The notes beneath the pieces are model-generated. The model was not told where the DNA came from, did no database searches, and worked only from the letters and a program-made list of their open reading frames with translations. This document shows, piece after piece, positions 4,302-57,647 of a DNA stretch of 61,642 nt; within the stretch, counting starts at the first letter, position 1, and every line of letters starts with the position of its first letter. The translations under genes and the position numbers were made by a program. Source of the stretch: Methanobacteriota archaeon (GTDB lineage Archaea > Thermoplasmatota > Poseidoniia > Poseidoniales > Poseidoniaceae); NCBI GenBank assembly GCA_018649825.1, contig JABIHC010000176.1, positions 1-61,642 on the forward strand. Reading direction: 5' to 3'.

Positions 4302-4304
4302 AAT

Positions 4305-40821: not shown

Positions 40822-43800
40822 TTATTTACGGAAGTTATTATTCAATAGAATAAGCATAGCGACCCACATTGCACGATTGTCAAGTTCATCGGTGAAAGTC
40901 TCGGCTTTGAGGCTCATTTCAAGGTCACCGATGGGCCTAGCAATACTTAGAGTTCCATATACATCTTCACCTTCAACGGCCGTAAATGCCCACTCAGTAG
41001 GAGATAACAGTTTTGAAAGTGGATCGAGTTTTGAAAGTGGGTGCATCGGGTAGTAATTACGAAGGAAGGCACGAACTTTTTGAGTCCTTGTAACTGAAAT
41101 CCATGGAGTTCCATCAATTTGCAAGATTTGCCATGATGCTCGGTTCCACGAGAATAATCGCTTGAAAAATGAGGTTCTAATTTCTTTGATTACACAAAAT
41201 GGTGAATTTGAAGCCGAATCCATAACATCAAAAATTCGCTTCTTGAAATTACGATTTATCAAGTGCAATTGTGGTTTAGCACGTGTGTCGTCTGCATATA
41301 CCATGATGTCTTGCTTACTTTTGCCAATGTTTCGTACTGCATAGCCAAGGCCGCCAGCCATACCAAAACTAACTGCATTATCTAAATTTGAGTCTCGAAC
41401 ACTGATGCAAGTTTCAGAACCAACCTTCTTCAAATTCATTGTCACATCACTTATCTTGAATCTCTTTACTCCGGTTTTGGTGACGAGAAGGGGAGTTAGT
41501 TCATTGGAATAATTAGGCTTGGCACTTTTCTTTGCTTGCCAACTACGGCGACGCGGTTCAACATATACATATGAAATAATCAATAATGCGAGAATTGCTA
41601 TGATTGAAAGCCCAGTGGTTGAACCAAGAATTGCCAACCCAAAGTCGTCAGGACTTGGCTCCCCTTGTACATGGAGTTCAGCATTCTTGCGCCCAACCAA
41701 CCCTATGTCAGTAGGTTCAGCAGAAAATGTGAAGTCAAAATCATCGGGGATTTCAGAACCGTGCGGTGATTTGACCACCGCACGAACAAGTACATATTCA
41801 CCTACTTGTAAATCACAAATAACTTCTAAACCATCATCTGGATTACAAATATGAGCCGGATCGTCTGTCTCAATTGTTACAATCCAACCGCGAAGGCTTT
41901 CACTTGTAAAAATACGTACTTCACTTGGTGTGTTTCCAAGATTACTCACATTTGCCTCGAATACCGCTTTGTTTGGATAGTAAACATCTTGAGTTTCTTC
42001 ACTAATTATTTCAAAGCCGATTTTACGAATACTTTGCACTTGGATATTGAAGGAAGTGGTAGAAGATAATGCTGAATTATGGCTGCTTGTGGCAATGACA
42101 TCAAAAGTACTTCCCTCTCCATTTGCGGCACCACCTGATATGGAGATATGTAAGTTGATGGCTATCGTGAATACCCGAGCCTCATGAGTATTGTTATCTC
42201 CATTTGCGTCAATCCAGTTTTTTGCGCCATTTTCAGCGCAGGATTCATCGCACCGAGATGAATAGTCCCACAAATGAGTTATAGAATTTGAGTCAATTTC
42301 AAAACGATGAGTCTCAAGGTTCCACACGCCATATGCCTTTGGCACACCGAAAGTTCCGCCTATGGAGTTCAAATCTTCCCACACATTGGTATTGGGATTT
42401 AGAATCTCAGCACTGCGGGTTCCCATGCCTTCAAGCCCTACAAGATTGATCAAGGCATTGTCACCTAAATCACCGGTATTATTAATCCATAGCGGTATCA
42501 CAAACTCCCCGCCAGGGGCTACTGTAAGGGAAACAGGACATCCATTAGATATTAGGCAACTCCAATCAACAATCATGTAATCTTCAAGCCCATCCATACA
42601 TTCACGGTCATCACAATTGGCAAGAGTCACATCCATTGAATAATTGCGATTTGAAAGAATTGCTTTAAATTCCTTTTCTCTTTGATTGTCTGGAATTCCA
42701 TCTTCATCATCATCACCTGTGTATGAATCATCCTTGTTGATGATTCGCACAATTAATTTAGACATATCCAGTTCCTCCTCCCCTTCAATATTGACTACAA
42801 GGGTTACTGTTGCTTCAGAGAATGCCGCAACATCTACTTCAATCACTGGAGTCTCGCCAAACAAGAAATGGGTATTCCACTCTGGCTGAGCCGTCTGACT
42901 GGCAACAATGAAACGGAATGTATCTTCGACATTTCCATCATTTATCAACAAAATTGGAAAATGTACATCTTGGCTGCTACGGCCAGTTTGGTCACCAACG
43001 TCTAAATTACCAACATCCCAATTATGGACTGGTTTGACAGTAATTGTCAAATTCATCGTATCATATGGCTGGCCACCAGAGGTGGCGCCTACTGAAATGG
43101 AAAGGATGATTGCATCGTCTGCTAATGCATAAAATGGTGCAGTAACAACTAATTCAATACTTTCTGTACGATCAGTACCATGCCTACTTCCAACAGATAC
43201 TGTAGAAGAAGACAAACTAACGCCCCACCCAGTTGGTGGAGCACTTGTGGAGATTTTGAGTGAGTCCGGTCCATTACCTTGGTTTGAAGCAGTTACTGTA
43301 ACTGAACCATTTCCTCCTGGTTCAACATTGGATATTGTAGTGCTAGAGAGGGAAACAGTTGCGCCGTGACTTTGACCGACAAGTATGCGCAATTGAACTT
43401 CGCAAAGAAGAGGCCCGGAAGAGCCGTCATGGCCCTCAATATTCACAATATGTTCAGAACCAGCCTGAACAGAATCATCTGGGCTTACTGTTATCTCAAA
43501 GGTCAACGGATTGGTACCCGTTCCTCCGTGACCGAGGTTGTGCAAACCCATATTTTCTATTTCTACCCAGTTAGAACGCGCACCGGTTTTTGCAGTTTTT
43601 ATACTATAGTCCGTATTGCCAGTATTTGAAAAAGTAACCGTTGTTGTCTCTGAATCATCTGGATTCACCGACATTGTCGCTGCACTAATCGCCACATCAC
43701 AAGAATGTATTTCAGGGATTGTTAAATCCAATAATTGGTCATCAGATGCGTTCTGAGTTGGGTCATTTTGAACTTGCGCGTGGAGTTCCCAGCAATACTT

Positions 43801-44619
43801 ACTGGCCTGAGAATCAGAAGGAACATCAATTCTAACTTCAACCCATTCACTTGTTTCATTATCCAAATTCAATGTAGAAGGCTCAACCTCCACAGTAAGG
43901 TCCGAAATATCACACCCTGGTCCGCCTTCATCTTCTATGGTAAGAGTAATTGTCTCATTAACTCGACCGGTGTTTTCTACCTCGACATCAAAAACATATA
44001 GTGCTTCACCACCCCATTCTTGACTAGGTTCATCAATTTTTAAATCAACTCCGTAAAGAGGGCTAGATTCGCCATCATCGCTAATTGTTGTCACAGTTGA
44101 CTCTTGTTGGTCTGGAGCACCTGGCTGGTCTGGTGGAGTTACTTGCTCATTTGCAGTTGCCCTAACAGTAGTATCACATTGGTCTGATGCACCTTGGGCT
44201 AGAGTGACATTCATCGTGGCCTCCCCAGTTGCACCAGGGGCGATTACGCCAGTAATTTGGGTGACTGTACTCGAATATGCGCCACATTCTTGAGTTTCTG
44301 CTTCATTTGATTGCAATTGTACAGTAATATCATTTGAGCCAAGATTACGAACTACAATAGAATATTCTCCGGATTCACCTGGATTAACAGATTGGCTACT
44401 CGGAGAAACCGTTAGAGTAATACTTGCATCTCGGGCTTCACCAGCGCTTGCAATTGGTGCTGAAAATGCTGGAATTATTGCTAATACCATAATAGCGAAA
44501 ATCAAGTAGGAACGACGCTTCTGACGAAGCAATTTTCGGCTATCCCCATAGTGTTCCATAGAACCCCGACGCGGCGACCTATCAAAAACGGTCCGGCTAT
44601 TGGTATCAGATTGCATCAT
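40822..44619 (-). CDS. Giant surface protein: signal anchor, repeated CARDB/DUF11-like beta-sandwich ectodomain, one TM, about 270-aa cytoplasmic tubby/LOR/scramblase-like domain
   Basis: N-terminal helix YLIFAIMVLAIIPAFSAPIASA. Repeats of the type SVNPGESGEYSIVVRNLGSNDITV are present. The TM helix is LSIIAILALLIISYVYV. The tail ends ..GDLEMSLKAETFTDELDNRAMWVAMLILLNNNF, resembling LOR/scramblase C-termini. The start lies 3 nt after the subtilase stop, with AGGTGA upstream. Confidence 0.7.
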   Translation of the reverse strand: MMQSDTNSRTVFDRSPRRGSMEHYGDSRKLLRQKRRSYLIFAIMVLAIIPAFSAPIASAGEARDASITLTVSPSSQSVNPGESGEYSIVVRNLGSNDITVQLQSNEAETQECGAYSSTVTQITGVIAPGATGEATMNVTLAQGASDQCDTTVRATANEQVTPPDQPGAPDQQESTVTTISDDGESSPLYGVDLKIDEPSQEWGGEALYVFDVEVENTGRVNETITLTIEDEGGPGCDISDLTVEVEPSTLNLDNETSEWVEVRIDVPSDSQASKYCWELHAQVQNDPTQNASDDQLLDLTIPEIHSCDVAISAATMSVNPDDSETTTVTFSNTGNTDYSIKTAKTGARSNWVEIENMGLHNLGHGGTGTNPLTFEITVSPDDSVQAGSEHIVNIEGHDGSSGPLLCEVQLRILVGQSHGATVSLSSTTISNVEPGGNGSVTVTASNQGNGPDSLKISTSAPPTGWGVSLSSSTVSVGSRHGTDRTESIELVVTAPFYALADDAIILSISVGATSGGQPYDTMNLTITVKPVHNWDVGNLDVGDQTGRSSQDVHFPILLINDGNVEDTFRFIVASQTAQPEWNTHFLFGETPVIEVDVAAFSEATVTLVVNIEGEEELDMSKLIVRIINKDDSYTGDDDEDGIPDNQREKEFKAILSNRNYSMDVTLANCDDRECMDGLEDYMIVDWSCLISNGCPVSLTVAPGGEFVIPLWINNTGDLGDNALINLVGLEGMGTRSAEILNPNTNVWEDLNSIGGTFGVPKAYGVWNLETHRFEIDSNSITHLWDYSSRCDESCAENGAKNWIDANGDNNTHEARVFTIAINLHISISGGAANGEGSTFDVIATSSHNSALSSTTSFNIQVQSIRKIGFEIISEETQDVYYPNKAVFEANVSNLGNTPSEVRIFTSESLRGWIVTIETDDPAHICNPDDGLEVICDLQVGEYVLVRAVVKSPHGSEIPDDFDFTFSAEPTDIGLVGRKNAELHVQGEPSPDDFGLAILGSTTGLSIIAILALLIISYVYVEPRRRSWQAKKSAKPNYSNELTPLLVTKTGVKRFKISDVTMNLKKVGSETCISVRDSNLDNAVSFGMAGGLGYAVRNIGKSKQDIMVYADDTRAKPQLHLINRNFKKRIFDVMDSASNSPFCVIKEIRTSFFKRLFSWNRASWQILQIDGTPWISVTRTQKVRAFLRNYYPMHPLSKLDPLSKLLSPTEWAFTAVEGEDVYGTLSIARPIGDLEMSLKAETFTDELDNRAMWVAMLILLNNNFRK

Positions 44620-44622
44620 AAC

Positions 44623-47600
44623 TCACCTAATAACAAAGGCTGAGATTTCGCCCTCACAATTTCTACATGTTTGAAGTTTTTCAACCCCACAAGAATCAGC
44701 GGCCAAATGATAGCGTGCGCCGCAGTTTGGACAACCTTGCCAACCTTCTTCGGCCAATCCTTTCAAGCAAACCCAACACTTGTGATTTGGGTTATTCATC
44801 TCACTTTCTTCAGGCTTTACCGGCTCTGTCGCTGCAGCAGAAATTGTTGCAGAAAAATTACCCGAGGATGGGGCTGTTGAAGGGGTATTTTGAGAGGGTG
44901 ATGAAGTAACATCTTGAGGTGTTGCAATCGGTGAGGCCTGAGGTTGTGATTCTACCGGAGGTAATACCTTGTGCTGGTCCATCATATTACTGGAGGAATT
45001 GGTGGTTTGAAGTTGTGCGGAAATCGGTTGTACAGGAGCCGTAGGGGCAATTGGAGTGAACCCAGTTGCGGCCATGTTTGGCGGCATTACACCGAGATGG
45101 GGTGAATGTTGGCCATTTTCATTTGACTTCTTTTTCAGCATTATTGTAGCAAAAACAACTGTTCCGAGTAAAATAAGTATGAAAGATGACCATATTGCCG
45201 TGTATAGAATATTTGATTTTCCTTCAACTATTTCTTCTCCCTCGGCAATAAGAGTGAAATTATACGTAGAACCGCTGACCTCATCAGCATCTGAAAGGTA
45301 GATGTTAAAGTTGCTTTCGCCTGCTTTTGATGTTTGTACAAAGAGTCTAACCGAAGTAGATTGGCCTGCTTCCAAATTTACATTCGGTTCACCATCAATA
45401 CGAACTTCCCAATCACTTGGTACATCGATATTGATTACTTTGCTAACTTGGGAATTACCACTATTTAGAAGGCGTAATTTTACTAAATGTTCTGTGCCAG
45501 TTTCCACATTGGGCAATAATTCAGTAGTCCAATCAACTGCTAATTCCTCAGCAACAAGTAAGGAAATTGAATCGGAACGAGATATTTCTCCACCAACCAT
45601 TCGTAACTCAATTTGAGGCTGTGTGCCGGGTTCTTCTGTATTTGGAATGTACAAGAAACAGGAAACAAAATCTTCTTGACCTGAAGCCAATTCATCCATT
45701 TGCACACAATCTCCCGAAAAACCATTGGGGATTACCAATGAAGAATACGGGTCCCAAGTTCCATCTCCATTATTCATCACCTGCCATTGTAAGGTTATTT
45801 GTTGACCAACTGGGTGGGCTCCACCGCTTAACACGTTGCTATAACTACTGCCGTCAGGATATGTAATTGAATAGAAAGAGAGACTGGGATTGGCTATCCT
45901 AATTACGCTGAGATTACCCTCCCAAGAATCTCTCCCTGAGTTAGAAGTTAGGTGTAATTTCATTATTCCACTACCAGCATTCCCATTTCCTTCAATAGTT
46001 ATCAACCAGTTTACGCTATCCCCCCAAGTAATATTTATGGCATTCATTGATGATTCCAAATCCCACCCCCCTGGGAGTACTGCCGAAGGTTGAACCGACA
46101 CATCTGAATTGCCGTTATTGCTTACTGAAAATTGCATATTGACTCTGCTATCTGGGCGAAGAAGTCCTAAAGTTGATTCAAGGCTGATAATTAATTCCTC
46201 GTGTATTTCCACCTCAACTGGGATATCTTCAATCCAAGTTACTGAAGGATCGGTCTGACTAACTATGCGCAACGAAAGACTCAATTGAGTTCCTGCCTCA
46301 ATCATAACTTGAGGTGGAGTTAAGGTGATTCCAATTGCCCGTAAACTTCCGATTGACAAGGCTCCGGTTGAACCAGAGGAGGCTCCGGGTTGAGAACCAA
46401 GGTCAATTAATCCTGAATTCCAACCCGAAGGGGAATCAAGGAATACATTGTATCCAATCGCATCATTTCCTTGATTGGTTAAATCGATGTAAAAGTCAGT
46501 TGGTTCGACCGGGCTGACAAGTACTTTCGAGGGGATATTTAAATTAATATCTGCAATAGAGGGCACCACTAATTCCAAACTGAATGGATAAGAAAGGCCA
46601 TTATCAACATCAATTCCTGTTAACGGAATAACAAAAGTGCCGGGGCTAGGAGTTGTTGGGTGAACCATATTTACTTGGATTTGTGCAGATTCAGAACCAT
46701 TAAGGCTGAAATTATAACCCGATGCACTAACATACCAACTAGGATATTCTTGTCCATCACGGATTTCATAAACGGAGCCAATATTTAGGCTAGCATTTGT
46801 CATCAATAATGCGGTATTTGTCAATGAAATTGTCCAAGATGTTGTTGCTTGGTCAGGGTCTGTTAGGATAATTGTGGGTTGTGCTGATTCAATTTTCACC
46901 CCTGGCGTAGTCACTTGAATAATAGTTTGAATAAGATTATTATTTTCCCTAATTTCCTCAACATTGTCTAATGGGTCAACTTCTATTCCAACCGATAGAT
47001 TACCATCGACTTGAGGCACCCAATTCCAATACAAGTTTGTCACTGAACCAGGGCCAAGAGAAATTGTATTGGTATCTTCAACAAATCCTTCAACGACGAA
47101 ATCCACACGTAAATTCTCAACGAGTGCATTGCCAAAATTCTGCACTTGAGAAGCGACAACAACAGTATCTCCAACTTGCGGGATTGCAATATCGGTAACT
47201 ATGCTACCTTCAATTGGAGCAGGGTCCGGACGTAAGTCATTTACACCATTACCTACTACTGCTAGAGCAAAAGGTTGGGTCTTTGAACCAGCATGACTGG
47301 CATCCTTGACTCTAACTGTCCAAGTTCCAATATTCGCTTGGTCAACTAATACGACTTCGAGATTGTTTACGCTATCTCTAGTTCCTGCAGTTACACTTTT
47401 CCCATTTGCAAAAGCATTACCCATGTAGATTGTTCCATCGGGCATTTCAACTTCGAGATCTAAATCGTTGACAAGTTGAGATGAAGAAAACCTTGAGCCA
47501 CGTTCATCTGACCATGCCAAAACGGCTTTAAAAGCGAGATTTGATTGTTCAACTTCAAAGGTGTAAGTTTTTACTGAACCAGAGGATGAAAGAACTGCGC

Positions 47601-49461
47601 GGTCATCAACCCAAATCCCTCTATTACCGCTTGGTGCAAGTGAATTACGGACATTTAATCGCCCCCATCCTTCATCCTCATTGGGAATATCGCGAGTATC
47701 CATATCTTGGGCACCGAGAACGAGAAGGGCTTTGACGAGAGCGCCTTGTGGATTTGGACGAAGAGCGATTTCAGTTAGATATTCACGAACTAAGGCAGCA
47801 GCACCTGCTGCATTTGGAGTTGCCATTGAGGTGCCGGTGTATTCCATGTACCACTGATTATTCCAAGTTGAACCAGATGTATCTTGAGCTTCTTGAGCAA
47901 GGCAAGAACGGACATAGCCCCCTGGTGCAAGAAGGTCGGGTTTTATTCTTCCATCATCAGTTGGACCGCGACTTGAGCCGCTCATCACACTATCTGGCGC
48001 ACCAGAATAGCGTGATTGGTGCATGCCTATTACGACTGCATTCTTTGAAGTTGCAGGAGGGCTGACGGTTCCGGAGTCTGGCCCATTATTACCGGCAGCA
48101 AATAGAACTGTCAAACCATCTCGACCATTGTAATAGCGGTCGTAATAATTAGTTCTATCATCAACATCTTCCGAATCAGAAGTATATTCTCCATTTTCTG
48201 ATTCAGACATACTTCCCCACGAATTAGTATGGGTGCGTGCGTTATTATCGTAGGCAGTATTCAATAAATAATTGATACTTACAGAATAGAGATTTCCGGA
48301 AGGGTCATGCTCCATTGCTTGAAAATATAGGTGGGCTTCGGGAGCCACTCCAGCATAACCTCCACGCGTTCCATCTCCGAGAACTGAACAAGCAACGTGG
48401 GTTCCATGCCCAGTATCAGTATCTGCAGTTGAACTATCACCAACCAAGTCAACCTTTGCATCAATACGCGACCCAAAGTCGCCATGATCATGATCAATTC
48501 CTGTATCGGCTACTGCAACTACTTGACCAGAACCGTCAAGATTTGATGTGAAATATGATTCTACTGTATCAACACCCATGTAATTGCGTGCCTTTTCATT
48601 ATCAACTCCAATAATTGGAGTAGTATGGAACCATCCAACCGCAGGGAGGCTGAGCAGTTCAACGAGATTAGAAGTTGAGAGTTTACCTTCCCAGCGTCCA
48701 GCATCATAACGATGAGCCTCAATGAGAGAGTTCTGTGCGACACGACCCATGTGGCCCGCCAAAATAACTTCTTCAGTATCAACTATTGTCCAAGCATCAG
48801 GGACTGTACTGGTTGCATCATCTCGCCAACCTTCAATGCGTACTTCCTCGCCAAGTAGGGATTCTGGGCCGAGAAAAGAATCAATATTGGTAGTGCTGGC
48901 TTCTTGCCAAGCATCCAAAATCATGTTACTAGCCATCATTGCAATAGGTACGTCCAAACTTGCGACAACACCTTCTGCTACACTTGCACGAAGAAGCGAA
49001 TTAGGAGTTCCTTGAACGACTAAACCACTTGGAGAAATATATTCGCGCACAACTAATCCATCAATTTCAGCGAGATTATTTCGGGCATCCGTTAGTTGGT
49101 AATCTCCATCAATAATCAACAGGGAAAGGTCTTCGCGTGCCACTAGGGAAGCGGGGGGCAAATCATTTGCAATTATTGTGCCATTTACTCCATGGATCCC
49201 CAATCGAGATATGGCTAATGTTGACCTGCCTTCTGGAACAAAAGACTCACTTTGAATACCCAGCGCATCAAAAATTTGATTCTCATCAATTGAAAATAAC
49301 TTCCAATCACTAGATTCATCGCCTAAAGAATAAGGGGTGCCATTACCAAATCCACCGCTATCTCTACCTTCAGAAGTATCAGGTATTGCGAAGGTTGCAG
49401 CAAAAGGTGAGACACTCACAAACAAGAGAGGGAGGAGTAAAAAAGCAAGTCTAATACGCAT
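44623..49461 (-). CDS. Membrane-anchored giant subtilisin-like serine protease (S8) with many beta-sandwich repeats and a zinc-ribbon cytoplasmic tail
   Basis: The catalytic residues lie in VAVADTGIDHDHGDF (Asp), GHGTHVACSVLG (His), AAGNNGPD (Asn) and GTSMATPNAAGAAALV (Ser). The signal peptide MRIRLAFLLLPLLFVSVSPFAATFA starts at ATG 49461, with GGAGAT upstream; the ORF opens at GTG 49494. The TM helix is ILYTAIWSSFILILLGTVVFATIML, and the tail ends CWVC..CPNCG...CRNC. Confidence 0.88.
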   Translation of the reverse strand: MRIRLAFLLLPLLFVSVSPFAATFAIPDTSEGRDSGGFGNGTPYSLGDESSDWKLFSIDENQIFDALGIQSESFVPEGRSTLAISRLGIHGVNGTIIANDLPPASLVAREDLSLLIIDGDYQLTDARNNLAEIDGLVVREYISPSGLVVQGTPNSLLRASVAEGVVASLDVPIAMMASNMILDAWQEASTTNIDSFLGPESLLGEEVRIEGWRDDATSTVPDAWTIVDTEEVILAGHMGRVAQNSLIEAHRYDAGRWEGKLSTSNLVELLSLPAVGWFHTTPIIGVDNEKARNYMGVDTVESYFTSNLDGSGQVVAVADTGIDHDHGDFGSRIDAKVDLVGDSSTADTDTGHGTHVACSVLGDGTRGGYAGVAPEAHLYFQAMEHDPSGNLYSVSINYLLNTAYDNNARTHTNSWGSMSESENGEYTSDSEDVDDRTNYYDRYYNGRDGLTVLFAAGNNGPDSGTVSPPATSKNAVVIGMHQSRYSGAPDSVMSGSSRGPTDDGRIKPDLLAPGGYVRSCLAQEAQDTSGSTWNNQWYMEYTGTSMATPNAAGAAALVREYLTEIALRPNPQGALVKALLVLGAQDMDTRDIPNEDEGWGRLNVRNSLAPSGNRGIWVDDRAVLSSSGSVKTYTFEVEQSNLAFKAVLAWSDERGSRFSSSQLVNDLDLEVEMPDGTIYMGNAFANGKSVTAGTRDSVNNLEVVLVDQANIGTWTVRVKDASHAGSKTQPFALAVVGNGVNDLRPDPAPIEGSIVTDIAIPQVGDTVVVASQVQNFGNALVENLRVDFVVEGFVEDTNTISLGPGSVTNLYWNWVPQVDGNLSVGIEVDPLDNVEEIRENNNLIQTIIQVTTPGVKIESAQPTIILTDPDQATTSWTISLTNTALLMTNASLNIGSVYEIRDGQEYPSWYVSASGYNFSLNGSESAQIQVNMVHPTTPSPGTFVIPLTGIDVDNGLSYPFSLELVVPSIADINLNIPSKVLVSPVEPTDFYIDLTNQGNDAIGYNVFLDSPSGWNSGLIDLGSQPGASSGSTGALSIGSLRAIGITLTPPQVMIEAGTQLSLSLRIVSQTDPSVTWIEDIPVEVEIHEELIISLESTLGLLRPDSRVNMQFSVSNNGNSDVSVQPSAVLPGGWDLESSMNAINITWGDSVNWLITIEGNGNAGSGIMKLHLTSNSGRDSWEGNLSVIRIANPSLSFYSITYPDGSSYSNVLSGGAHPVGQQITLQWQVMNNGDGTWDPYSSLVIPNGFSGDCVQMDELASGQEDFVSCFLYIPNTEEPGTQPQIELRMVGGEISRSDSISLLVAEELAVDWTTELLPNVETGTEHLVKLRLLNSGNSQVSKVINIDVPSDWEVRIDGEPNVNLEAGQSTSVRLFVQTSKAGESNFNIYLSDADEVSGSTYNFTLIAEGEEIVEGKSNILYTAIWSSFILILLGTVVFATIMLKKKSNENGQHSPHLGVMPPNMAATGFTPIAPTAPVQPISAQLQTTNSSSNMMDQHKVLPPVESQPQASPIATPQDVTSSPSQNTPSTAPSSGNFSATISAAATEPVKPEESEMNNPNHKCWVCLKGLAEEGWQGCPNCGARYHLAADSCGVEKLQTCRNCEGEISAFVIR

Positions 49462-49481
49462 AAGAATTATCTCCAATATTA

Positions 49482-50072
49482 TCAAAGCAACCACATGCTT
49501 GTCGGTGCCGTATCAACAAACCAATCGCTAGCATAGTTGCCAACTGTATGGTCATATCTTTGTGAATGTGAAGAACCTTTTCCGTCAGTCCAATCAAGAA
49601 TAACTGAATATTGATACTCATCCCAAACCGTATGACCTTGAATAACCAATTCTAAATCATCTCCAGTTACACTACTATGAGCGGGTAGAATATCGCCACT
49701 CCAACTAGTACTGTCAACCAATTCACCTTCAACATCAGAAAAACTAATTGTTACCCTTACATCAGTGACTGCCCTACTTCCATCATTATCCAATGATACG
49801 AGGAATACATGAGTGCCGCCGCGCTGATAATATCTGCTTTCAACAGACATTGAGTCTCTCGGTATAGCCCAATGCCATGATGCTGCAACAAGCAAAAATA
49901 GTACTAAGAGGGTACAACTGGCGGCAATTACTCTACCGAGAGTGACTTGATGCCCTATTTCCAATAATTTTTCAGCAACTTCATGCGCTATCTTAAATTC
50001 TTCTTCGCTGACATCAATCAACTCATCCTCATCAGAAGTAGTTGAAAGGATTATTTGCTCATCATCTTTCAT
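49482..50072 (-). CDS. Small type-II membrane protein (acidic cytoplasmic N-terminus, one TM, about 120-aa external beta-rich domain)
   Basis: The TM helix is VIAASCTLLVLFLLVAASW. ATG 50072 shares 1 nt with the stop of the 1,594-aa gene and is preceded by GGAGGTGG. The stop lies 20 nt before the subtilase ATG. Confidence 0.6.
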   Translation of the reverse strand: MKDDEQIILSTTSDEDELIDVSEEEFKIAHEVAEKLLEIGHQVTLGRVIAASCTLLVLFLLVAASWHWAIPRDSMSVESRYYQRGGTHVFLVSLDNDGSRAVTDVRVTISFSDVEGELVDSTSWSGDILPAHSSVTGDDLELVIQGHTVWDEYQYSVILDWTDGKGSSHSQRYDHTVGNYASDWFVDTAPTSMWLL

Positions 50073-53000
50073 CAATTACCACCTCCAAATAAAGTCATTA
50101 CCACGGTTAATACAAGGGAAGAAAGTGGTTCAATAATGAGCATATGAGTAGTATCAGCACGTCCTCCTGTCAACGTATTAAGGAGGGAAAGATCGCCTGT
50201 AACTCCATTTACACCAAAGGTTGAGCCCGAAGGGACTGGGCCTGTTGCTTGAGCATCAATTAGAACTCCACGAGCATCCCAAGTAATGCCTCCAACCTCG
50301 ACATCGGCGTTCGCAGTCGCTACAATACGGCCTCCGGCCACATCATCAAGAACGACAACAGGGAATAACCAACTACCATAGACGTGAACGGTCATGGATT
50401 TGAGATTCTCTCCAGTTGCTTCCATTGAATGCAAATACATTCCGGGATATATCGGTGAGTCGGTTTGGCGATAGTAGAGCCGTCCGATTCCATCGCCAGA
50501 AGTAGAAATTTGTAATCCCCAATCATCGGTATGGGAAATACTGGTACGAGAAGGTAGGTCCTCAGCAATCATCACCATATTTGAACGGGATTCAAGGGCT
50601 TTTCCATTTGCATCAACATAGAGATCAAGGGTGTCTGCATTACTCGTATACTCAAGGGTGTACATGCCTTGGAACATCGCTTGTTCATTAATGTCATATT
50701 CGTAACTTGGCTGCATTGAAAGATGCAATTCACCGGGGAGTTGATGCATGAATACCGTTGCAGGATACCAAATACCATCGCGATAACGCATAGTTTGAAT
50801 CATCGCAGAGCCTGCCGATAAACCATTATTTTGTGCAGACTCGGGAACTGCAAAGTCAATTTGCAATAAATCACCAATTATTGTTGACATATCTCCAGTT
50901 GCAGGTAAATCATTGATTAGAGTTTCATAACGACTATCCACATTTCTATCAATTAGTATTGCATGTGCATATTCAAGAGGTTCTCCAAACTCATAATGAA
51001 GGTCAACATTTACTCTTGGAACCGTGAAAGAATCATCAGTTGAGATTTGCATTCTCACCGAAGCATCCCTTTGTAATGTAGTATCAAGACCGCTTATTTC
51101 AATTGCCACATCGCGATTTGAAACTCCATTCATTTCAAATCTCAACATTTCTCGAGCAGGCGTCCAACCCTCTAAATCAATCCTGAAATCATAAGTTGGC
51201 ACGCCATCGGGTTCTGAGTATCTATAGCCAAGATTCTCAATCGTTGGAGGTAGGTTAGGAAGCCAAGTGCGAATATGCCAAGAACGACGTTCTTCTGCAT
51301 CAATCCCCTCGGTTAGGAGTTGAGTACGGTCAATTAATTCCCATTCATCTGGCTCAATCAATCCATCATTCAATGCAAGTGCAAGTTCAGATGCTTGAAG
51401 GATATTATCGCCAAGAATTGCAAGGAATAAATCACGTTCATCAGTTGAAACAAGCCCGTCTTGCAAAATCCCTTCGAGTTGCCCACGCGGAGTACTGGTA
51501 AGCCAAACCATTGCACTTAGATTGAAATCTAACAAAGTTCGGTCTTCTATACTCAATGCGACACCATGCATCCAGTTGGGATCTTCTGGAACTACATCTC
51601 CCTTCTCAATATCGGCAATTATTGTGAAAGGGGCATCGGCATGGAGGTCCAGTCCGAGGGCAAGATCATCATTGTCTGAACCACCTCCGAGGTCACGGGT
51701 TAATTCGGAAACAAGGTCAGAAACAGATTGACCAAAGCCTACCATATCTCCAAGGAAGAAAGCGAGAGCACTAACTCCTTCTTCATCACCAAAACCAGGT
51801 GTAGCAAAACCCCCACTATCCACTTCGCTGGGATAATCAAAGGCTAGGGCTGAGGGGAGAGGATCAATTAACATGGTTGCATTTAATCCTAAATGTGGGT
51901 CCGCATAGGCGGTATCATCGCGAATCAATACATTGAATGGAGCCGAGGAAGAACGGTTAATGGCAATGTTTCCATTTCCTAATTCACCAACCGCACCAGG
52001 AACTTCAGGGGAAGTTCTGCGAATATTTGTGAGGTTTGACAGGCGAGCCGAAAGGTCGGCTTCACCAGTGATAGTATCCTGCCAAAAGTAAAAATGATCT
52101 CCATCCATAGTTTTTGGATTTGATGAATTGCTAATTTGGATGTTAATAGATGCAATCGGTTCATCGGCAATATAACCAAGAGTATCGCCAAGAAGTACTT
52201 CAAAATGAGAAGGCAAACCTTCCATTCGTATTGCATTTGCTTGCGGAGATTCAAATGCAGCATAGGTAATTGAACCAATTGGGCCATCTGCATGATAGGT
52301 AATTGATTCTGGACTTTGACTTATCATCAAACTTAGTGGACGGTTTGAAATGTGGGCGAATTGGTGTTGGCTGGCATTCAGTGTGCCACTATCGTGTGAA
52401 ATGAATACGATATCAATTGGAGCGGTGCTGGCACCAATTAATTCAATATCACGTATTTCATTATCAGGGTCAAAACTATGATATATACTTGAAACTTGAC
52501 TAATGTTTGCACTCAAAGAAACCGAGACGAGTGGGGTTTCCAACTGCAAGCGGCCAGGGACGGGGTCGAGCCCGCGGTCATGGCCCAAAACAATGTGGTC
52601 CTCCCCTAAAAACACCGGATGGTCGCTTGAACCGAGTTCCAGTGACAGAGTTCCAAGTATTTCTGAAGTACGTTGACCATGTGTAAGTGAGGTAAATAGA
52701 ACTTGATTATAGGATTCAATTCTAACAACCCCGCCGCCTTCACTTGCAGTAGAAACTATTGCCATTGGCAATCCCTGAATAATGCTGCCTACATCGAGAA
52801 TTATTTCTACTAATCCGAGCAGAATGTTATCAAAAAATTGTGAGAAAATATCCAAATTAATATCATCATACATCACCCGTATTCCTCCACCGGCGGGCAT
52901 TTCAAAACTACCATAAATCAGCAATACTTCAGGAATGTCCTCAATGAAAATATGGGTGCGACTATAGTCAAATGACGAACCATAACGCATCACATGGGCA

Positions 53001-54751
53001 GTGAATTCAATACTTGTAGCACGCTCATTGAGGGCGATTAAGATTAGGCTATCTGGCGGGCCAGCAGGGTTTATGGGCAAGGTATCATCATCGACATTGT
53101 CATCTTTATCACGAGTGAAATTCTTGATGGCGATTATCATAGAAAGGCGCTCATCGGGAACTTGGCCAGGGAGGTCTAGAGAGTCTGGTGCCGCCCCTAA
53201 CATAGTAAATATTGCATTGATTTCATCTTGCGGCATTGAATTGCCAGGGAGGCCGCGGAAAATAACCGAAGCATCGGTAATATTACCATAAGGTGAATCG
53301 GGTTCACTGTAATTTGAGCGGTCCTCGAAATAATGTATGGTTAAGTCGGCATTGATATCACCATAGTATTCAATCGTATCAAGACTATCCTTGCCAAGAT
53401 TGTCGTTACGGAATACCAAATCGGCTTCACTTAGCAACATTTGTGAATCTTCAGTAGGATGGAATGCTGCATCAATATAGGCCACTTCAAGGGGGTTGCG
53501 GGCACCAGATGAGTCAGGCAATCCATAATGAATGTAGCCAATACCTATTCCGATTTTGCATTTATGCTGACGCGACTTTGCCAAATGGTCTCGGCTAGGG
53601 TCGTACCATAATTCACCATTTGCCAACTCATCCCAACAATCTTGCTGGCGATTAGTCCCCGGTTCATTTGGATTATGCATGGTAATTGAATATGGTGCAG
53701 AAACTTCGGTAAGGAGTAATGTGGATTCATTGAAACTAGGGCTAAATAATTGCGCAATTAGAGTAATAATATTTGTTCCAAGAGCAGTAATATCAAATTC
53801 CATGCGTTCAAGACCAACCCGTAATTGGAAATCATATGGGGGTTGAGTAAAAGATGAATCAATAACAAAGGCATAGCCTTCACCATCAGCGCCTACTGAC
53901 AATTCATAGGCAAAACCTTTGATTAGCGTTACTTCCATTGATTCCATAGACTCCCAAATCGCAGCAGAATTAGCAGTATTATTCAACATATGAACTCGCC
54001 ATTGGAAAGTTGGGCGAATCCACAAAGATTCGGGAGTTGGCACCAAACCGTCTGACATCTCAATATCCCAACCAACTCCTTGTTGCCCAAGTCCCATAAT
54101 GGTTAACCCAACCAATAAATCATCATTGCCATCACCATCCAAATCAATACTATTCTCAAAAGGAGTAGAGCCGGAAAGAGTAATCAAGTCGCCAGTGAAA
54201 GTACCTGAATCCCAAGCTTCATATTGAGGGCCATTTCCTCGGGCGGAATAGTTGACATAGAGGACATAGGAATTGATTCCAATAGCAAGTGGATCACTCA
54301 AATCAGGGGGGAGGCCAAAGAGGGTATCGAGAAGGTTTGAGGGGAAATTGGGAGGTTGGGTATCCTCATTCAATAACAACTCGTAAGGCCGGGGGTGGTC
54401 GGGAGAAGGAGGAGATGTGTCACGCAAGGCTATTTTGGCCATTTGTGTATTTACTTCTTCGAGGGGGTCAGACGGACCGCTGTCTCGCAGGCTCGCTTCT
54501 ACACCGGATAATGAGCCTGTAGCCATTAATCCAACATCAGAATCATCGGCGGCACCAGCCCGTTCATTCAACACCTTATCAAGGGCTGAAAGTACACCGA
54601 AATCATCACTTGCAACTTGCAGAGACCCTGCGCTTGCAAGTGGTGAAAAAGTAGGGGCGATGAATAGAATCATCATGATAATGCCAAGGCGTATCGGACG
54701 CGTATCGGCTGGCTTCAAACCAGCCACTAACACTCGAACATGCTCACCCAT
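50072..54751 (-). CDS. Giant orphan surface protein (about 1,560 aa) with signal peptide and C-terminal hydrophobic anchor
   Basis: The probable start is ATG 54751 (MGEHVRV..RPIRLGIIMMILFIAPTFSPLASAGS); the ORF opens at 54856. A single FG-GAP/Ca-binding-like DLDGDGNDDLLVG is present. The C-terminus is LIIEPLSSLVLTVVMTLFGGGN. No catalytic motif was recognised. Confidence 0.65.
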   Translation of the reverse strand: MGEHVRVLVAGLKPADTRPIRLGIIMMILFIAPTFSPLASAGSLQVASDDFGVLSALDKVLNERAGAADDSDVGLMATGSLSGVEASLRDSGPSDPLEEVNTQMAKIALRDTSPPSPDHPRPYELLLNEDTQPPNFPSNLLDTLFGLPPDLSDPLAIGINSYVLYVNYSARGNGPQYEAWDSGTFTGDLITLSGSTPFENSIDLDGDGNDDLLVGLTIMGLGQQGVGWDIEMSDGLVPTPESLWIRPTFQWRVHMLNNTANSAAIWESMESMEVTLIKGFAYELSVGADGEGYAFVIDSSFTQPPYDFQLRVGLERMEFDITALGTNIITLIAQLFSPSFNESTLLLTEVSAPYSITMHNPNEPGTNRQQDCWDELANGELWYDPSRDHLAKSRQHKCKIGIGIGYIHYGLPDSSGARNPLEVAYIDAAFHPTEDSQMLLSEADLVFRNDNLGKDSLDTIEYYGDINADLTIHYFEDRSNYSEPDSPYGNITDASVIFRGLPGNSMPQDEINAIFTMLGAAPDSLDLPGQVPDERLSMIIAIKNFTRDKDDNVDDDTLPINPAGPPDSLILIALNERATSIEFTAHVMRYGSSFDYSRTHIFIEDIPEVLLIYGSFEMPAGGGIRVMYDDINLDIFSQFFDNILLGLVEIILDVGSIIQGLPMAIVSTASEGGGVVRIESYNQVLFTSLTHGQRTSEILGTLSLELGSSDHPVFLGEDHIVLGHDRGLDPVPGRLQLETPLVSVSLSANISQVSSIYHSFDPDNEIRDIELIGASTAPIDIVFISHDSGTLNASQHQFAHISNRPLSLMISQSPESITYHADGPIGSITYAAFESPQANAIRMEGLPSHFEVLLGDTLGYIADEPIASINIQISNSSNPKTMDGDHFYFWQDTITGEADLSARLSNLTNIRRTSPEVPGAVGELGNGNIAINRSSSAPFNVLIRDDTAYADPHLGLNATMLIDPLPSALAFDYPSEVDSGGFATPGFGDEEGVSALAFFLGDMVGFGQSVSDLVSELTRDLGGGSDNDDLALGLDLHADAPFTIIADIEKGDVVPEDPNWMHGVALSIEDRTLLDFNLSAMVWLTSTPRGQLEGILQDGLVSTDERDLFLAILGDNILQASELALALNDGLIEPDEWELIDRTQLLTEGIDAEERRSWHIRTWLPNLPPTIENLGYRYSEPDGVPTYDFRIDLEGWTPAREMLRFEMNGVSNRDVAIEISGLDTTLQRDASVRMQISTDDSFTVPRVNVDLHYEFGEPLEYAHAILIDRNVDSRYETLINDLPATGDMSTIIGDLLQIDFAVPESAQNNGLSAGSAMIQTMRYRDGIWYPATVFMHQLPGELHLSMQPSYEYDINEQAMFQGMYTLEYTSNADTLDLYVDANGKALESRSNMVMIAEDLPSRTSISHTDDWGLQISTSGDGIGRLYYRQTDSPIYPGMYLHSMEATGENLKSMTVHVYGSWLFPVVVLDDVAGGRIVATANADVEVGGITWDARGVLIDAQATGPVPSGSTFGVNGVTGDLSLLNTLTGGRADTTHMLIIEPLSSLVLTVVMTLFGGGN

Positions 54752-54830
54752 GCACCCCGTAGGGGTGCAGGTATGCTTTAGGACATTGGGTCTATTGGAC
54801 TCACCACATCGAGGTTTGAAGTGAAGGAAA

Positions 54831-57647
54831 CTAACTGCGTAATACCTGTTCCACACTACACGAAGGACAGTCTACCAGCACCTCGTTTATGCCATCGGGG
54901 AAGGTAAGGGCAAAGTGAGCACCACAGGCTCCACAAGCGGCTTCAACCAAGCCTTCTTGTTCGGTTGCGCCAGAGTTAGTATCCGGCGCCTGAGAAGGTG
55001 CCTCAGCGGTGGTTTGGGTGGAAGTGGACTGTGAGGACATGGCATCTGCGGAACCAGAATCTCCTTGCATTTGCAAGCCTTTGAGGAAGGCAACATCCTC
55101 ATCAATTTCACCTTCACTTACGGCACTATTTTGAGGAATAACTACTCCCATTGAAGTTGCACGCTTTTGCGCAGCAGCGGTACTTTGCTGGTCTGTTTGG
55201 GCAGTTTGGCTGGATGGAGAATCTTGAGTTATTGGATTGAAATGGTCGTTTGATGCAGGAGCATCAGAAATATGTGTGCTTTGTTCGGAGTCAGCAGCTG
55301 CGACATCGTCTGCAAAAGCCGAAAATTCATCCTCAGAAAGCACACGAGATTGTTGACCTTGAGCATATCCACTTGTGGCAGGAGTGACTCCGGCTATTCG
55401 TGCCAACTCATTTTCTGCATTGGCTCGGGAATTGCCTCCATAGCCTGCATGGCCACCATAACTTTCCGCATTAGAAGAGCGTTGGAATCCAGCATTTGGA
55501 TCCGAGATTTGTGATGCTGGAACTGGGTCGCCACCATATAATTGCTGAGATAATTGACTCTTTTCATCATTTTGCAATTGGACAACAGTTTTTACATCAC
55601 CTGAATCTAATCCTGCCAACGTTTCAGCATTTGCGAATACCGATAATTTCTGGTTGACCTTGATTGAAAGAATTTGAGTTTCGGCTTCTTCAGCACTTAA
55701 TCCATGATTGACTAATAGTTGAATTGCCGCGTGTTCCTGAACTTTACGATATCCGATTAATCCTGCGACAGAAGTTGCAATTACTACAATGGAGATTATC
55801 AGCACTAGAGCAAACATGTTACCTTCACTTGGTGCTGGAGAAACTTGAATTGTAAATCCGGCAGAATCAGAATTACCTGCTGCATCGGTGACGGTCAATA
55901 CAATCTCGGTTTTCCCATGGTGCTGGAAAATATGACCCAGATTTGCTCCTTGCAAATCTGCATCATTTCTTGCATTTCCGTCGTTATCTGAATCAAAATC
56001 GGGGTCCAAATCCCAAGCATAATGCAAATCTGAAGCCTCGTCCCACGCATCGAGAGCTGAAGCATTGAAAGTTACCGTTTTTCCCTCCTGAGCATTAACT
56101 GGAACTGAAGTTTTTTCTTCATTTATCACTGGAGTAGTAGTGTCAATTACCTCAACAGTAATACTCACCGAATCTGAATTCCCGCTCGGGTCAGATACAA
56201 TTATCTCGACTTGATGCTCACCGGGAATCCCCCATTGTAAGTCAATGCTTGAACCACTACCTTGCAAAGTACCATCAACAATCCAATTTATTGAAGCAAT
56301 AGCATGGGCATCTTCTGCATTTGCAGTAGCGGTTATCAATTGGCTGTGGTCAACAAGAGCATGCATTTCAGAATCAAGCCCGGGAATAGAAACTGAAAAG
56401 GTAGGGGCGACTGTATCGATAATAGTGACACTATGAGCAATAGTGGCACTGCGGCCATCAAGAGATGCTATTGTTAGGCTGACTTCGAATACACCTGGTG
56501 TCAAATATGTAGTTGACACACCCCAGCCGCCTGCATCATTATCATCATCATTTACTCCATTATCATCACTATCAACTGAGGTGTCGAAATCCCATTGAAG
56601 TGTATTGATTTGGTTGTGAGAATTTGGCATTGCGGCTTGAAAACCGATAGTTGTCCCGAGTTCGCCACCTTGTATAGAAAATTCAGGAGATAATACGGGG
56701 GTTAATTCTAGTTTTATAGAGACCTTTGCCATGCCAATTCCCTCGCCTCCCCCTGTAGGTTCTGCTTCATTATCAAACATTAGATGAAGAGGGATGCCGT
56801 CTAATTCAGCAGGAACGGACCAAACAAGAGTTTGTTGAGTTGTGATTGAGGTTAATGAGGCACCGGAAATAAATGCCTCACCATTGCCATTTGAAAGATA
56901 ATTTGCACGTTGGTCATCGGTCATCAAGTAGAGGTCAGCATCACCACTTATTGGCCAAGTGGTGATGGTTAATTTATCACCTGCATCAAATGTTAACTCG
57001 CTCCCTCCAGCCAATTCAGAATGAGAACCTGGAGCAAGTACTGCAAGCCCATGAAATAAGTCAAACTCACTAGAAGGAAGTAATTCAACATCGAGGGAAA
57101 CTATTGAAGAATTAGCACCTTGATCGCCAAAATTTTCATCACCTGGATGAGCCATATTGTCAATAATAATGAACCATCCTTTATCCGTTAGACTGGCGGG
57201 AACTTGCCAGTGAAAATTAACTGTACCCGATAAAGATTCAAGAGTTGGGTCAGCAGTCATGGCCAAGTGATAGTTTTGTCCTGCGAGATAGGTAGTAGCA
57301 CCATTTTCATTAAAAAATAACAAATCAATTGGAGAGTCACTAACTTGAACTGAAATATCCAAAACAGATTCCGAGACAAGTGTTCCCAAATTCAAAGAAG
57401 AACACTCACCAGAAGAAAGACTTAGATTAGCCGGCAAGGTTGACATTTCAACAGAGGAACAGGTTACTGCTGACCTTGCGCTAACTTTCAAAGAAGATTC
57501 CAAAGATGGGAAATGAGAGGGATTAGAATCAATGTCATCATTTATTGCAGGGGAAATATGCGAAATAGAAACGATATTGACTGCAATTACTGGCAAAATG
57601 AAGAGGCCGACCAGCAACAAAACTGCGAACTGTATTCTCCGACCCAT
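54831..57647 (-). CDS. Surface protein with PKD-like domains, one TM, and a long Q/S-rich cytoplasmic tail ending in a zinc ribbon
   Basis: Signal peptide MGRRIQFAVLLLVGLFILPVIAV. PKD-like modules are WDFDTSVDSDDNG...GVFEVSLTIASLDG and YAWDLDPDFDSDNDG...TEIVLTVTDAAGNS. The TM helix is MFALVLIISIVVIATSVAGLIGY, and the C-terminus is CGACGAHF...CPSC. Confidence 0.75.
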   Translation of the reverse strand: MGRRIQFAVLLLVGLFILPVIAVNIVSISHISPAINDDIDSNPSHFPSLESSLKVSARSAVTCSSVEMSTLPANLSLSSGECSSLNLGTLVSESVLDISVQVSDSPIDLLFFNENGATTYLAGQNYHLAMTADPTLESLSGTVNFHWQVPASLTDKGWFIIIDNMAHPGDENFGDQGANSSIVSLDVELLPSSEFDLFHGLAVLAPGSHSELAGGSELTFDAGDKLTITTWPISGDADLYLMTDDQRANYLSNGNGEAFISGASLTSITTQQTLVWSVPAELDGIPLHLMFDNEAEPTGGGEGIGMAKVSIKLELTPVLSPEFSIQGGELGTTIGFQAAMPNSHNQINTLQWDFDTSVDSDDNGVNDDDNDAGGWGVSTTYLTPGVFEVSLTIASLDGRSATIAHSVTIIDTVAPTFSVSIPGLDSEMHALVDHSQLITATANAEDAHAIASINWIVDGTLQGSGSSIDLQWGIPGEHQVEIIVSDPSGNSDSVSITVEVIDTTTPVINEEKTSVPVNAQEGKTVTFNASALDAWDEASDLHYAWDLDPDFDSDNDGNARNDADLQGANLGHIFQHHGKTEIVLTVTDAAGNSDSAGFTIQVSPAPSEGNMFALVLIISIVVIATSVAGLIGYRKVQEHAAIQLLVNHGLSAEEAETQILSIKVNQKLSVFANAETLAGLDSGDVKTVVQLQNDEKSQLSQQLYGGDPVPASQISDPNAGFQRSSNAESYGGHAGYGGNSRANAENELARIAGVTPATSGYAQGQQSRVLSEDEFSAFADDVAAADSEQSTHISDAPASNDHFNPITQDSPSSQTAQTDQQSTAAAQKRATSMGVVIPQNSAVSEGEIDEDVAFLKGLQMQGDSGSADAMSSQSTSTQTTAEAPSQAPDTNSGATEQEGLVEAACGACGAHFALTFPDGINEVLVDCPSCSVEQVLRS

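Follow-up and report, generated by a model that had tools for sequence, protein, structure and literature searches.

The window analysed here, a 61,642-nt stretch of contig JABIHC010000176.1 (GCA_018649825.1) from a Marine Group II archaeon (Poseidoniales), carries at positions 40822-57647 a block of five consecutive open reading frames (ORFs), all on the minus strand, of 938, 1,559, 196, about 1,612, and 1,265 amino acids (aa). The genes are referred to as g1 (PKD protein), g2 (giant), g3 (small protein), g4 (subtilase), and g5 (immunoglobulin (Ig)-repeat protein). We read the block, at about an even chance of being right, as a core cell-envelope gene block of Marine Group II (MGII) that encodes a membrane-tethered surface layer for proteolysis and binding, and not as an accessory adhesin island. 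The five genes are as follows.

54831..57647, minus strand: g1, surface protein of 938 aa (PF18911 and PF00801; hydrophobic segments; homologues upstream of g2 in the fetched loci)
50072..54751, minus strand: g2, acidic, beta-rich, non-repetitive surface protein of 1,559 aa, of an unnamed family
49482..50072, minus strand: g3, type II membrane protein of 196 aa from ATG 50072
44623..49461, minus strand: g4, membrane-tethered S8 subtilase of the KP-43 type, about 1,612 aa
40822..44619, minus strand: g5, surface protein with Ig-like repeats of the NEW3 and choice-of-anchor T type, 1,265 aa

Conservation of the block across Poseidoniales

The g2 family alignment was scanned against one genome per GTDB species, which yielded 186 genomes with a relative. 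The best 80 loci were fetched, and their gene order was read by tblastn with the window proteins. In every sufficiently long locus among these best 80 of 186, the order L15e-(MBL)-g1-g2-g3-g4-g5-nuoA-nuoB-nuoC and the strand were the same (L15e, archaeal ribosomal protein; MBL, metallo-beta-lactamase-fold protein). The median gaps between the five genes were 74, 5, 57, and 50 nt (81 loci for g2-g3), and the few outliers in spacing were traced to truncated or mis-started ORFs. No inserted gene was found inside the block in 60-80 loci; insertions do exist at its borders, namely LysE, MBL, NYN, and approximately 0.7-0.9 kb of extra sequence before nuoA. The g2 proteins of the fetched species genomes are 42-60% identical, and the metagenome-assembled genome (MAG) Guaymas_26, a GTDB species genome, shows 97% identity across g2. 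The named homologues of g2 and g5 all come from Candidatus Poseidoniales (Marine Group II).

Two more distant Poseidoniales loci from Marine Group IIb (MGIIb), L084 and L085, in which g2 is 36% identical, read FtsZ-L15e-PRC-g1-g2-g3-S8-g5-nuoABCD. The same block order is carried by the gene table of SIMO Bin 19-2 (PMC9723583 supplement), a genome assigned to genus O1 of Ca. Thalassarchaeaceae (MGIIb) (PMC9723583).

SIMO Bin 19-2, gene order: nuoC, nuoB, nuoA; 2.7-kb gene; 4.5-kb subtilisin-like protease gene; 0.58-kb gene; 4.4-kb unannotated gene; 2.6-kb PKD gene; PRC-barrel gene; L15e

The eggNOG seed orthologues in this table are MG2_0423 for L15e, MG2_0429 for the S8 protease, and MG2_0433 for nuoB; the locus-tag numbering suggests that the first assembled MG-II genome fits the same gene order. 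Conservation of the block in related genomes, which a preliminary description of this DNA had named as a check, is thus borne out both in all sufficiently long loci among the 80 fetched and in MGIIb.

The g2-g3 pair is an ancient two-gene module

Searches of g2 and g3 against Pfam, NCBIfam, PADLOC, and PDB sequences gave no matches, and distant g2 relatives gave none against Pfam. The length of the g2 family is tightly fixed, at 1,534-1,594 aa in at least 120 homologues and at 1,544-1,598 aa in the fetched loci. A phmmer search with g2 aa 1-1200 against 1.84 billion representative proteins returned 163 matches, mostly fragments. The full-length relatives are 31-40% identical to g2 and 1,417-1,547 aa long, and the named ones are labelled Poseidoniales or Euryarchaeota archaeon. 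Five further relatives are very distant (1,284-1,782 aa; E 9e-19 to 1e-6), their similarity lying mainly in g2 aa 573-1090. What had been described as an orphan giant is therefore a member of a widespread unannotated family with relatives in Poseidoniales and in distant archaeal lineages.

We inspected the loci of four of the five very distant relatives (L086-L089). Their guanine-plus-cytosine content spans 30-68%, and the neighbouring genes differ widely (LonB, PAC2, Elp3, Cas4-like, and others). Downstream of each giant, at a distance of -4 to +10 nt, starts a gene for a single-pass membrane protein of 150-346 aa. The Poseidoniales g3 profile selects exactly those four small ORFs out of 459, with E values of 2e-10 to 2e-7, and the distant g3 relatives share an [IV]PR[TD] motif at the membrane exit. 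No S8, PKD, or g5 gene adjoins the pair in the four loci; L089 carries unrelated S8 and CARDB genes several kb away. Since the pair persists in four distant archaeal lineages without the other three genes, g2 and g3 are an old two-gene core, which g1, g4, and g5 joined in the Poseidoniales lineage.

The g3 protein consists of an acidic cytoplasmic N-terminus, one membrane segment with [IV]PR[TD] at its exit, and an ectodomain of approximately 125 aa. The SD motif upstream of the gene (Shine-Dalgarno; GGnGnTG) is conserved across loci. An N-D-G motif had pointed to a CARDB-like ectodomain, a candidate that was rejected after hhalign comparison with CARDB, NEW3, and g5 domain profiles gave probabilities of at most 1.2%.

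For g2 aa 1-1200, AlphaFold2 with 60 homologues produced a model with a mean predicted local distance difference test score (pLDDT) of 77 and a predicted template modelling score (pTM) of 0.73. The model is mostly beta, with many strands of 10-18 residues, and contains two long helices, 635-669 (35 residues, hydrophobic, highly conserved) and 994-1019 (26 residues). Profile self-comparison of segments detected no internal repeats. The high pTM over 1,200 residues without repeats indicates a predicted compact multi-domain body and not an adhesin stalk of Ig beads. Foldseek searches of the model against PDB and BFVD found no match with a template modelling (TM) score above 0.09. The top rows would have suggested an outer-membrane barrel or a phage tail fibre; with a root-mean-square deviation above 30 Å and TM at most 0.09, they were discarded as spurious.

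The g2 protein begins with a signal peptide, and its C-terminus ends in a short conserved motif.

50075-50140, minus strand: g2 C-terminal motif, H-x3-[VI]-[ED]-P and, after it, a stretch of 10-17 small or hydrophobic residues that lacks a basic cluster

Relatives with as little as 20-25% identity retain the motif in the form PEP, PAP, or PLP. It could be a signal for sorting or a strand on which g3 docks. A PEP-CTERM/archaeosortase signal was considered and rejected: although the tail contains [ED]-P or P-E-P, it ends just 10-17 residues later, too few for a full-length membrane helix, it has no Arg/Lys cluster, and no NCBIfam model matches.

Two g2 relatives stand out by the contigs that carry them. 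L061 lies on JAYQHX010000002.1 (1,531,829 bp), which may be a nearly complete Poseidoniales chromosome, and P0336 is listed on a 3,002,195-bp ENA contig, unexpectedly large for the group.

Gene layout and membrane topology

The preliminary description had reported five minus-strand genes separated by 80 nt, a 1-nt overlap, 20 nt, and 3 nt. All five ORFs were found at those positions, g2 and g3 overlap by 1 nt (TGATG), and the g3-g4 and g4-g5 gaps are 20 and 3 nt; the g1-g2 gap is 79 nt, not 80. ATG 54751, which it had taken as the start of g2, agrees with an identical public protein of 1,559 aa and with the N-terminus common to at least 120 homologues. SD-like motifs, described there for three junctions, were recovered upstream of g2 (GGGGTG), g3 (GGAGGTGG), and g5 (AGGTGA). 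The g4 ORF as listed begins at GTG 49494 (1,623 aa), and the gene probably starts at ATG 49461 (1,612 aa). Two hydrophobic segments, one of them N-terminal, are seen in each block protein except g3, which has a single type II anchor. An export signal and a membrane anchor had been assigned to every member; the hydrophobic segments fit this assignment, but the g2 C-terminus is no canonical transmembrane anchor. The ectodomains are very acidic, with isoelectric points of 4.05-4.33.

g4 is a tethered subtilase of the KP-43 type

Pfam assigns g4 to the S8 family (PF00082, 161.9 bits; cut-off 21.8), with additional matches to CARDB (49.9 bits) and NEW3 (31.7 bits). In phmmer comparisons, g4 aa 299-747 aligned with residues 1-432 of 5fax (E 4e-72) and 1-433 of 1wmd (E 3e-70).

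47254..48600, minus strand: g4 catalytic domain and KP-43-type C-terminal beta domain, aa 299-747 of the 1,623-aa ORF (phmmer)
44656..44778, minus strand: g4 cytoplasmic Cys-rich zinc module, C-x2-C-x11-C-x2-C-x4-H-x5-C-x7-C-x2-C

The catalytic Asp-His-Ser residues and the oxyanion Asn (D330, H363, S556, and N469) do not vary among the 60 homologues compared, and an active protease is therefore expected. Ahead of the catalytic domain lie approximately 260 residues, and the Pfam scan detected no I9 propeptide. A membrane segment at aa 1434-1452 (ORF numbering) is followed by a proline/serine-rich tail and the Cys-rich module. This module contains one His and seven Cys, six of which are kept in 59 of 60 homologues, and its matches to Pfam zinc-ribbon and Prok-RING models are weak. 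Judging from the number of ligands, its spacing could bind two zinc ions.

An anti-phage defence role of the IetAS/IteS kind was rejected for g4, given that the matches are partial and confined to the subtilase domain (IetS 46.4 bits; IteS 36.9 against a cut-off of 900) and that there is no partner ATPase. Previous studies have reported high transcription of a subtilase, among other peptidases, in both families (PMC9723583), S08A peptidases as the dominant expressed extracellular peptidases of MGII (PMC5069720), and 1-4 extracellular S8 genes in every MGII MAG (PMC6864105).

g1 and g5 are anchored surface proteins with cytoplasmic tails

The PKD domains of g1 match PF18911 with 54.9 bits (cut-off 27) and PF00801 with 40.5 bits (cut-off 23.5). 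From the N-terminus, g1 comprises a signal or anchor segment, the PKD domains, a membrane segment (aa 613-631), a low-complexity cytoplasmic tail of approximately 300 aa, and a four-Cys zinc ribbon.

54858..54935, minus strand: g1 C-terminal zinc ribbon, Cys905, 908, 927, and 930 (conservation)

Each of these Cys is kept in 56-57 of 59 homologues, and 63 of 68 tails contain at least two CxxC pairs. The zinc-ribbon tails previously proposed for g1 and g4 are thus supported by conserved cysteines in both families.

Other window genes encode related designs. A 918-aa protein (19119-21875, minus strand) resembles g1 in having a signal peptide, a CARDB ectodomain, a membrane segment, and an acidic tail with several CxxC, and its C-terminal CGACG...CGTCG ribbon is much like that of g1. 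A 613-aa exported protein near the block on the opposite strand (22058-23899, plus strand) has Big_13 and weak CARDB matches, many N-x-S/T sequons, and a C-terminal membrane segment.

The best family match of g5 is NF041740 (choice-of-anchor T), with 63.9 bits (E 1.2e-17) over three stretches in aa 41-279, under the curated cut-off of 70. Ig-type Pfam matches remain sub-threshold (HYDIN/VesB 24.4, NEW3 22.0), and no CARDB domain (PF07705) was found in g5 at E <= 0.01. Its earlier label as a CARDB-repeat protein is accordingly not borne out; it is g4 that contains CARDB. We found 380 g5 homologues, typically of approximately 965 aa. The membrane segment of g5 (aa 997-1015) is followed by a cytoplasmic tail.

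40825..41562, minus strand: g5 cytoplasmic tail, aa 1020-1265 (AlphaFold2 model, Foldseek)

The AlphaFold2 model of the tail, built with eight homologues, has 12 strands and a C-terminal hydrophobic helix (226-245) at a pLDDT of 65. Its sole Foldseek match with a probability of 1.00 is 1zxu (At5g01750, LURP-one-related), with a TM score of 0.55. Comparison of the tail with PF01167, PF04525, and PF03803 gave no match at E <= 10. A tubby/LURP-one-like fold is thus moderately supported by the model, at the level of fold and not of sequence. By tblastn, the tail occurs only in L005 and L006, the two closest relatives, and eight tail-bearing proteins were identified among the g5 homologues; most g5 homologues end approximately 7 residues past the membrane segment. 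The tubby-like tail of the preliminary description therefore stands as a predicted fold, but it is restricted to the clade of the window and is no core feature of the block.

Five other g5 homologues from one Poseidoniaceae clade (P0141, P0145, P0147, P0149, and P0150; approximately 1,160 aa) carry, in place of the short tail, an extension of approximately 200 aa with two or three additional predicted membrane segments. Because clades carry different extensions, the C-terminus of g5 appears as a hotspot for lineage-specific additions.

Transcription of the block

Upstream regions were compared by position-specific conservation over 74 distinct sequences, which revealed a conserved element in front of g2.

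54778..54792, minus strand: conserved non-coding element at -41 to -27 relative to the ATG of g2; the window has GACCCAATG, the majority of relatives GG.G.ATG.TT.T..AAGG

The element stands at a fixed distance in nearly all Poseidoniales loci (L001-L083), with the variants GGCGAATGCTTCTCAAAGG, GGGGATGGGTTCTCATAG, and GACCCAATG, and may represent the g2 transcript start, an element of the 5' untranslated region, or a regulatory site. AAA near -65 and TTTT near -55 are also found upstream of g2. Upstream of g5 lies TTTTnATA at -32 to -24, and g3 is preceded by its conserved SD motif alone, without a promoter-like element. A conserved ATG in the g1-g2 spacer was dismissed as an earlier g2 start, for it is followed by a stop after two codons in the window. 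These patterns make it probable that g2, to which g3 is coupled, and g5 each have a promoter of their own. The single five-gene operon of the preliminary description is in keeping with the common strand and the short or overlapping junctions, but it is doubtful because of the conserved promoter-like elements upstream of g2 and g5.

Published normalised transcript coverage per million is available for SIMO Bin 19-2, one MGIIb genome, in seven low-coverage samples. All five genes are detected, at similar moderate levels. The values for FN66 / FN71 are as follows.

g1: 0.17 / 0.11
g2: 0.13 / 0.10
g3: 0 / 0.08
g4: 0.13 / 0.04
g5: 0.17 / 0.20
nuoA: 0.15 / 0.20
L15e: 1.24 / 0.33

Genes around the block

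In the window, the block is flanked upstream by the genes for L15e, the MBL protein, and a LysE transporter, and downstream by an NYN ribonuclease gene and then nuoA-B-C-D-H. Rfam and tRNA scans of the window gave no matches. The LysE-type transporter gene (59363-60055, minus strand) lies between the L15e and MBL genes and occurs, among the fetched loci, only in the window and L006. The NYN/Zc3h12a-type ribonuclease gene (39083-40636, minus strand; 517 aa) lies between g5 and nuoA and occurs only in the closest relatives, L005 and L006, on the opposite strand in L005; the clade with this gene is the clade with the tubby-like g5 tail. Farther away, 3303-9512 (minus strand) encodes a 1,241-aa FtsX-like permease with pentapeptide repeats, two flanking ABC ATPases, and a TetR regulator. 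An ftsX-like permease has been reported among the highly transcribed genes of Marine Group IIa (PMC9723583).

Interpretation of the block and alternative explanations

In our proposal, three membrane-tethered proteins (g1, g4, and g5) would have been added next to the g2-g3 pair in Poseidoniales, and the five products would together build a layer of protein outside the membrane. The g2 protein would be a large scaffold, docked or organised by g3. The g4 protease would cut extracellular proteins near the cell, and the resulting peptides would be taken up, while g1 and g5 would attach to polymers or to other envelope proteins nearby. Through their conserved cytoplasmic zinc modules, g1 and g4 might be tied to a cytoplasmic partner or to each other. 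Transcription would start from several promoters, one for g1, one for g2-g3 (perhaps running on), and one for g5. The data show what the block is made of, the topology and conservation of its proteins, its integrity, the persistence of g2-g3, the intact catalytic site, and transcription in situ. That the products associate physically, that g2 is the scaffold and g3 its anchor, what the protease and the binding proteins act on, and what the zinc modules do are inferred.

Several observations weigh against this proposal. L15e and nuoA-C, unrelated in function, are as syntenic as the block itself, so adjacency alone is no proof that g1, g4, and g5 act with g2-g3. The promoter-like elements at g2 and g5 argue against a single operon, and the transcript levels are moderate, unlike those of a dominant envelope protein. 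The combination of surface domain, anchor, and zinc ribbon is a lineage habit and not a signature of the cluster, because it is also found in a window gene outside the block. The C-terminal tail of g2 is too short for a canonical membrane anchor. No domain or fold could be recognised in g2 or g3, so that size, topology, and conservation are the entire basis for casting g2 as a scaffold.

One alternative is that g2 and g3 constitute the S-layer (surface layer) in Marine Group II and in archaea related to it, a lattice-forming giant with its small membrane partner, similar to SlaA/SlaB, with g4 as a STABLE-like S-layer enzyme that may mature the lattice protein. An S8 protease on an archaeal S-layer has a precedent (PMC5744192), and our full-text literature search found no named MGII S-layer protein. 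An exported giant and a small single-pass membrane protein occur as a conserved pair with coupled translation, in distant lineages as well; the g2 family has a fixed length, an acidic ectodomain, and a compact beta-rich model; the block occupies a core genome position in every genome examined; and the g2 tail is too short to span the membrane, so that the actual anchor could be g3. As a rule, genes for S-layer proteins rank at the top in transcription, whereas g2 transcripts in MGIIb reach approximately 1/10 of those of L15e in FN66 and 1/3 in FN71, similar to nuoA. Moreover, g2 shows no sequence or fold similarity to a solved S-layer protein and no Pfam or NCBIfam S-layer domain, it is devoid of long coiled coils and repeated Ig domains, and its N-glycosylation sequons are not enriched. 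With 42-60% identity, the g2 proteins of the fetched species genomes are more alike than would be expected of an S-layer protein, and it is the subtilase, not g2, that is listed as highly transcribed (PMC9723583). On balance, we consider an S-layer rather unlikely. The block could also encode, as the preliminary description suggested, an apparatus for particle or polymer capture and attachment, a stoichiometric complex in which the giant and the Ig/PKD adhesins hold detritus or high-molecular-weight protein and the protease degrades it. The PKD and Ig-like domains of g1, g4, and g5, the tethered protease with intact catalytic residues, the tight gene spacing, and the conserved SD coupling at g2-g3 agree with such an apparatus, and proteins and lipids are the presumed diet of MGII, which are sometimes found on particles (PMC6864105, PMC9723583). 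However, g2 is non-repetitive, fixed in length, and universal, whereas adhesins are usually repetitive, length-variable, and strain-specific; no carbohydrate- or protein-binding module was recognised by Pfam in g2 or g3; the pair occurs without a protease in distant lineages; and North Sea MGII are mostly free-living (PMC6864105). We regard dedicated capture as quite improbable.

Alternatively, five independently acting surface-protein genes may have been frozen in a stable segment between L15e and nuo, sharing export as their only common function. This would explain why flanking genes of unrelated function are equally syntenic, why similar architectures are encoded elsewhere in the window, and why g1, g4, and g5 are absent beside g2-g3 in distant lineages, and the probable separate promoters are compatible with it. 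It is nevertheless very doubtful in our view, considering that insertions accumulate at the borders of the block and never inside it (60-80 loci), that the g2-g3 pairing survives a complete change of neighbourhood, that the transcript levels of the five genes are similar, and that conserved cytoplasmic zinc modules are common to g1 and g4. A purely coincidental neighbourhood is unlikely for g2-g3, but it may hold for g1, g4, and g5. We thus retain the core envelope block as our reading. A more far-reaching version of it, which we hold to be unlikely, is that g2-g3 represent a previously unrecognised class of archaeal envelope proteins whose fold is unlike solved structures, building the outer layer of Marine Group II and of several uncultured archaeal lineages, and that the Poseidoniales layer gained a tethered subtilase and two Ig-type partners, with zinc modules linking it to the cell interior.

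Marine Group II is among the most abundant archaea of surface seawater. To our knowledge, it has never been cultured and its cell envelope is uncharacterised. The block supplies concrete candidates for its envelope proteins, including two families, g2 and g3, that are universally conserved in the order, lack a name or known fold, and as a pair reach beyond the order. Through g4, which belongs to the peptidase family seen as the dominant expressed extracellular peptidase of MGII, the block offers a handle on the degradation of dissolved protein by these cells. The products are also candidate virus receptors and possible targets for metaproteomics, antibody labelling, and tomography. If g2-g3 were indeed a new envelope class, the block would encode the main interface of an abundant ocean archaeon with its food and its viruses; if these are only co-located surface genes, the block would still be useful as an order-wide synteny marker.

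Comparison with known systems

No characterised system matches the block in Pfam, NCBIfam, PDB, PADLOC, or Foldseek searches, in line with the preliminary description, and the full-text literature search found no description of it. The nearest functional analogue of the ensemble would be the tetrabrachion/STABLE layer of Staphylothermus marinus (Peters 1995/1996, Mayr 1996, as reviewed in PMC5744192). The review describes it as the only archaeal S-layer with an enzymatic component, and its protease has been proposed to serve peptide feeding and surface-protein maturation (PMC5744192). In both cases, a membrane-anchored, beta-rich archaeal surface protein of approximately 1,500 aa occurs alongside a subtilisin-family protease of very large size on the cell surface. 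In tetrabrachion, however, a 70-nm four-helix coiled-coil stalk binds the protease, whereas the longest helices of g2 (aa 1-1200) have 35 and 26 residues, no coiled coil was detected, and g2 matches no PDB sequence or structure. Unlike STABLE, g4 has its own membrane anchor and a cytoplasmic zinc module.

The g2-g3 pair resembles SlaA/SlaB of Sulfolobales in that the gene of an exported protein of approximately 1,400-1,500 aa stands directly upstream of that of a smaller single-pass membrane protein, as a conserved pair. SlaB has roughly 400-475 aa; g3 is far smaller (150-350 aa), anchored N-terminally, and without a coiled coil. Foldseek of the g2 model against PDB, SlaA structures included, gave no match, and g2 transcripts are moderate, whereas slaA is very highly expressed. 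The alignment of g4 aa 299-747 covers the whole KP-43 and SubHal chains (1wmd, 5fax) including the C-terminal beta domain, with the triad and the oxyanion Asn intact. KP-43 enzymes are secreted bacterial proteins of approximately 430 aa, to which g4 adds approximately 260 N-terminal residues, an Ig-like stalk of approximately 700 residues (CARDB, NEW3), an anchor, and the Cys-rich zinc module. The g5 tail, with its predicted 12 strands and C-terminal hydrophobic helix, resembles the LURP-one-related (DUF567) protein At5g01750 (1zxu), but it has no sequence match to the Tub, LOR, or scramblase families, its model reaches a pLDDT of only 65, and, unlike tubby and LURP-one proteins, it forms the cytoplasmic end of a giant surface protein, in the clade of the window only.

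Taken member by member, g1 is an ordinary PKD surface protein, g4 is a new and much extended member of the KP-43 branch of S8, and g5 consists of Ig-type repeats and stands near the choice-of-anchor T family, whereas g2 and g3 belong to unnamed families without a known fold. Archaeal envelope clusters with a surface subtilase are already known as a kind; the g2-g3 core pair could be something new.

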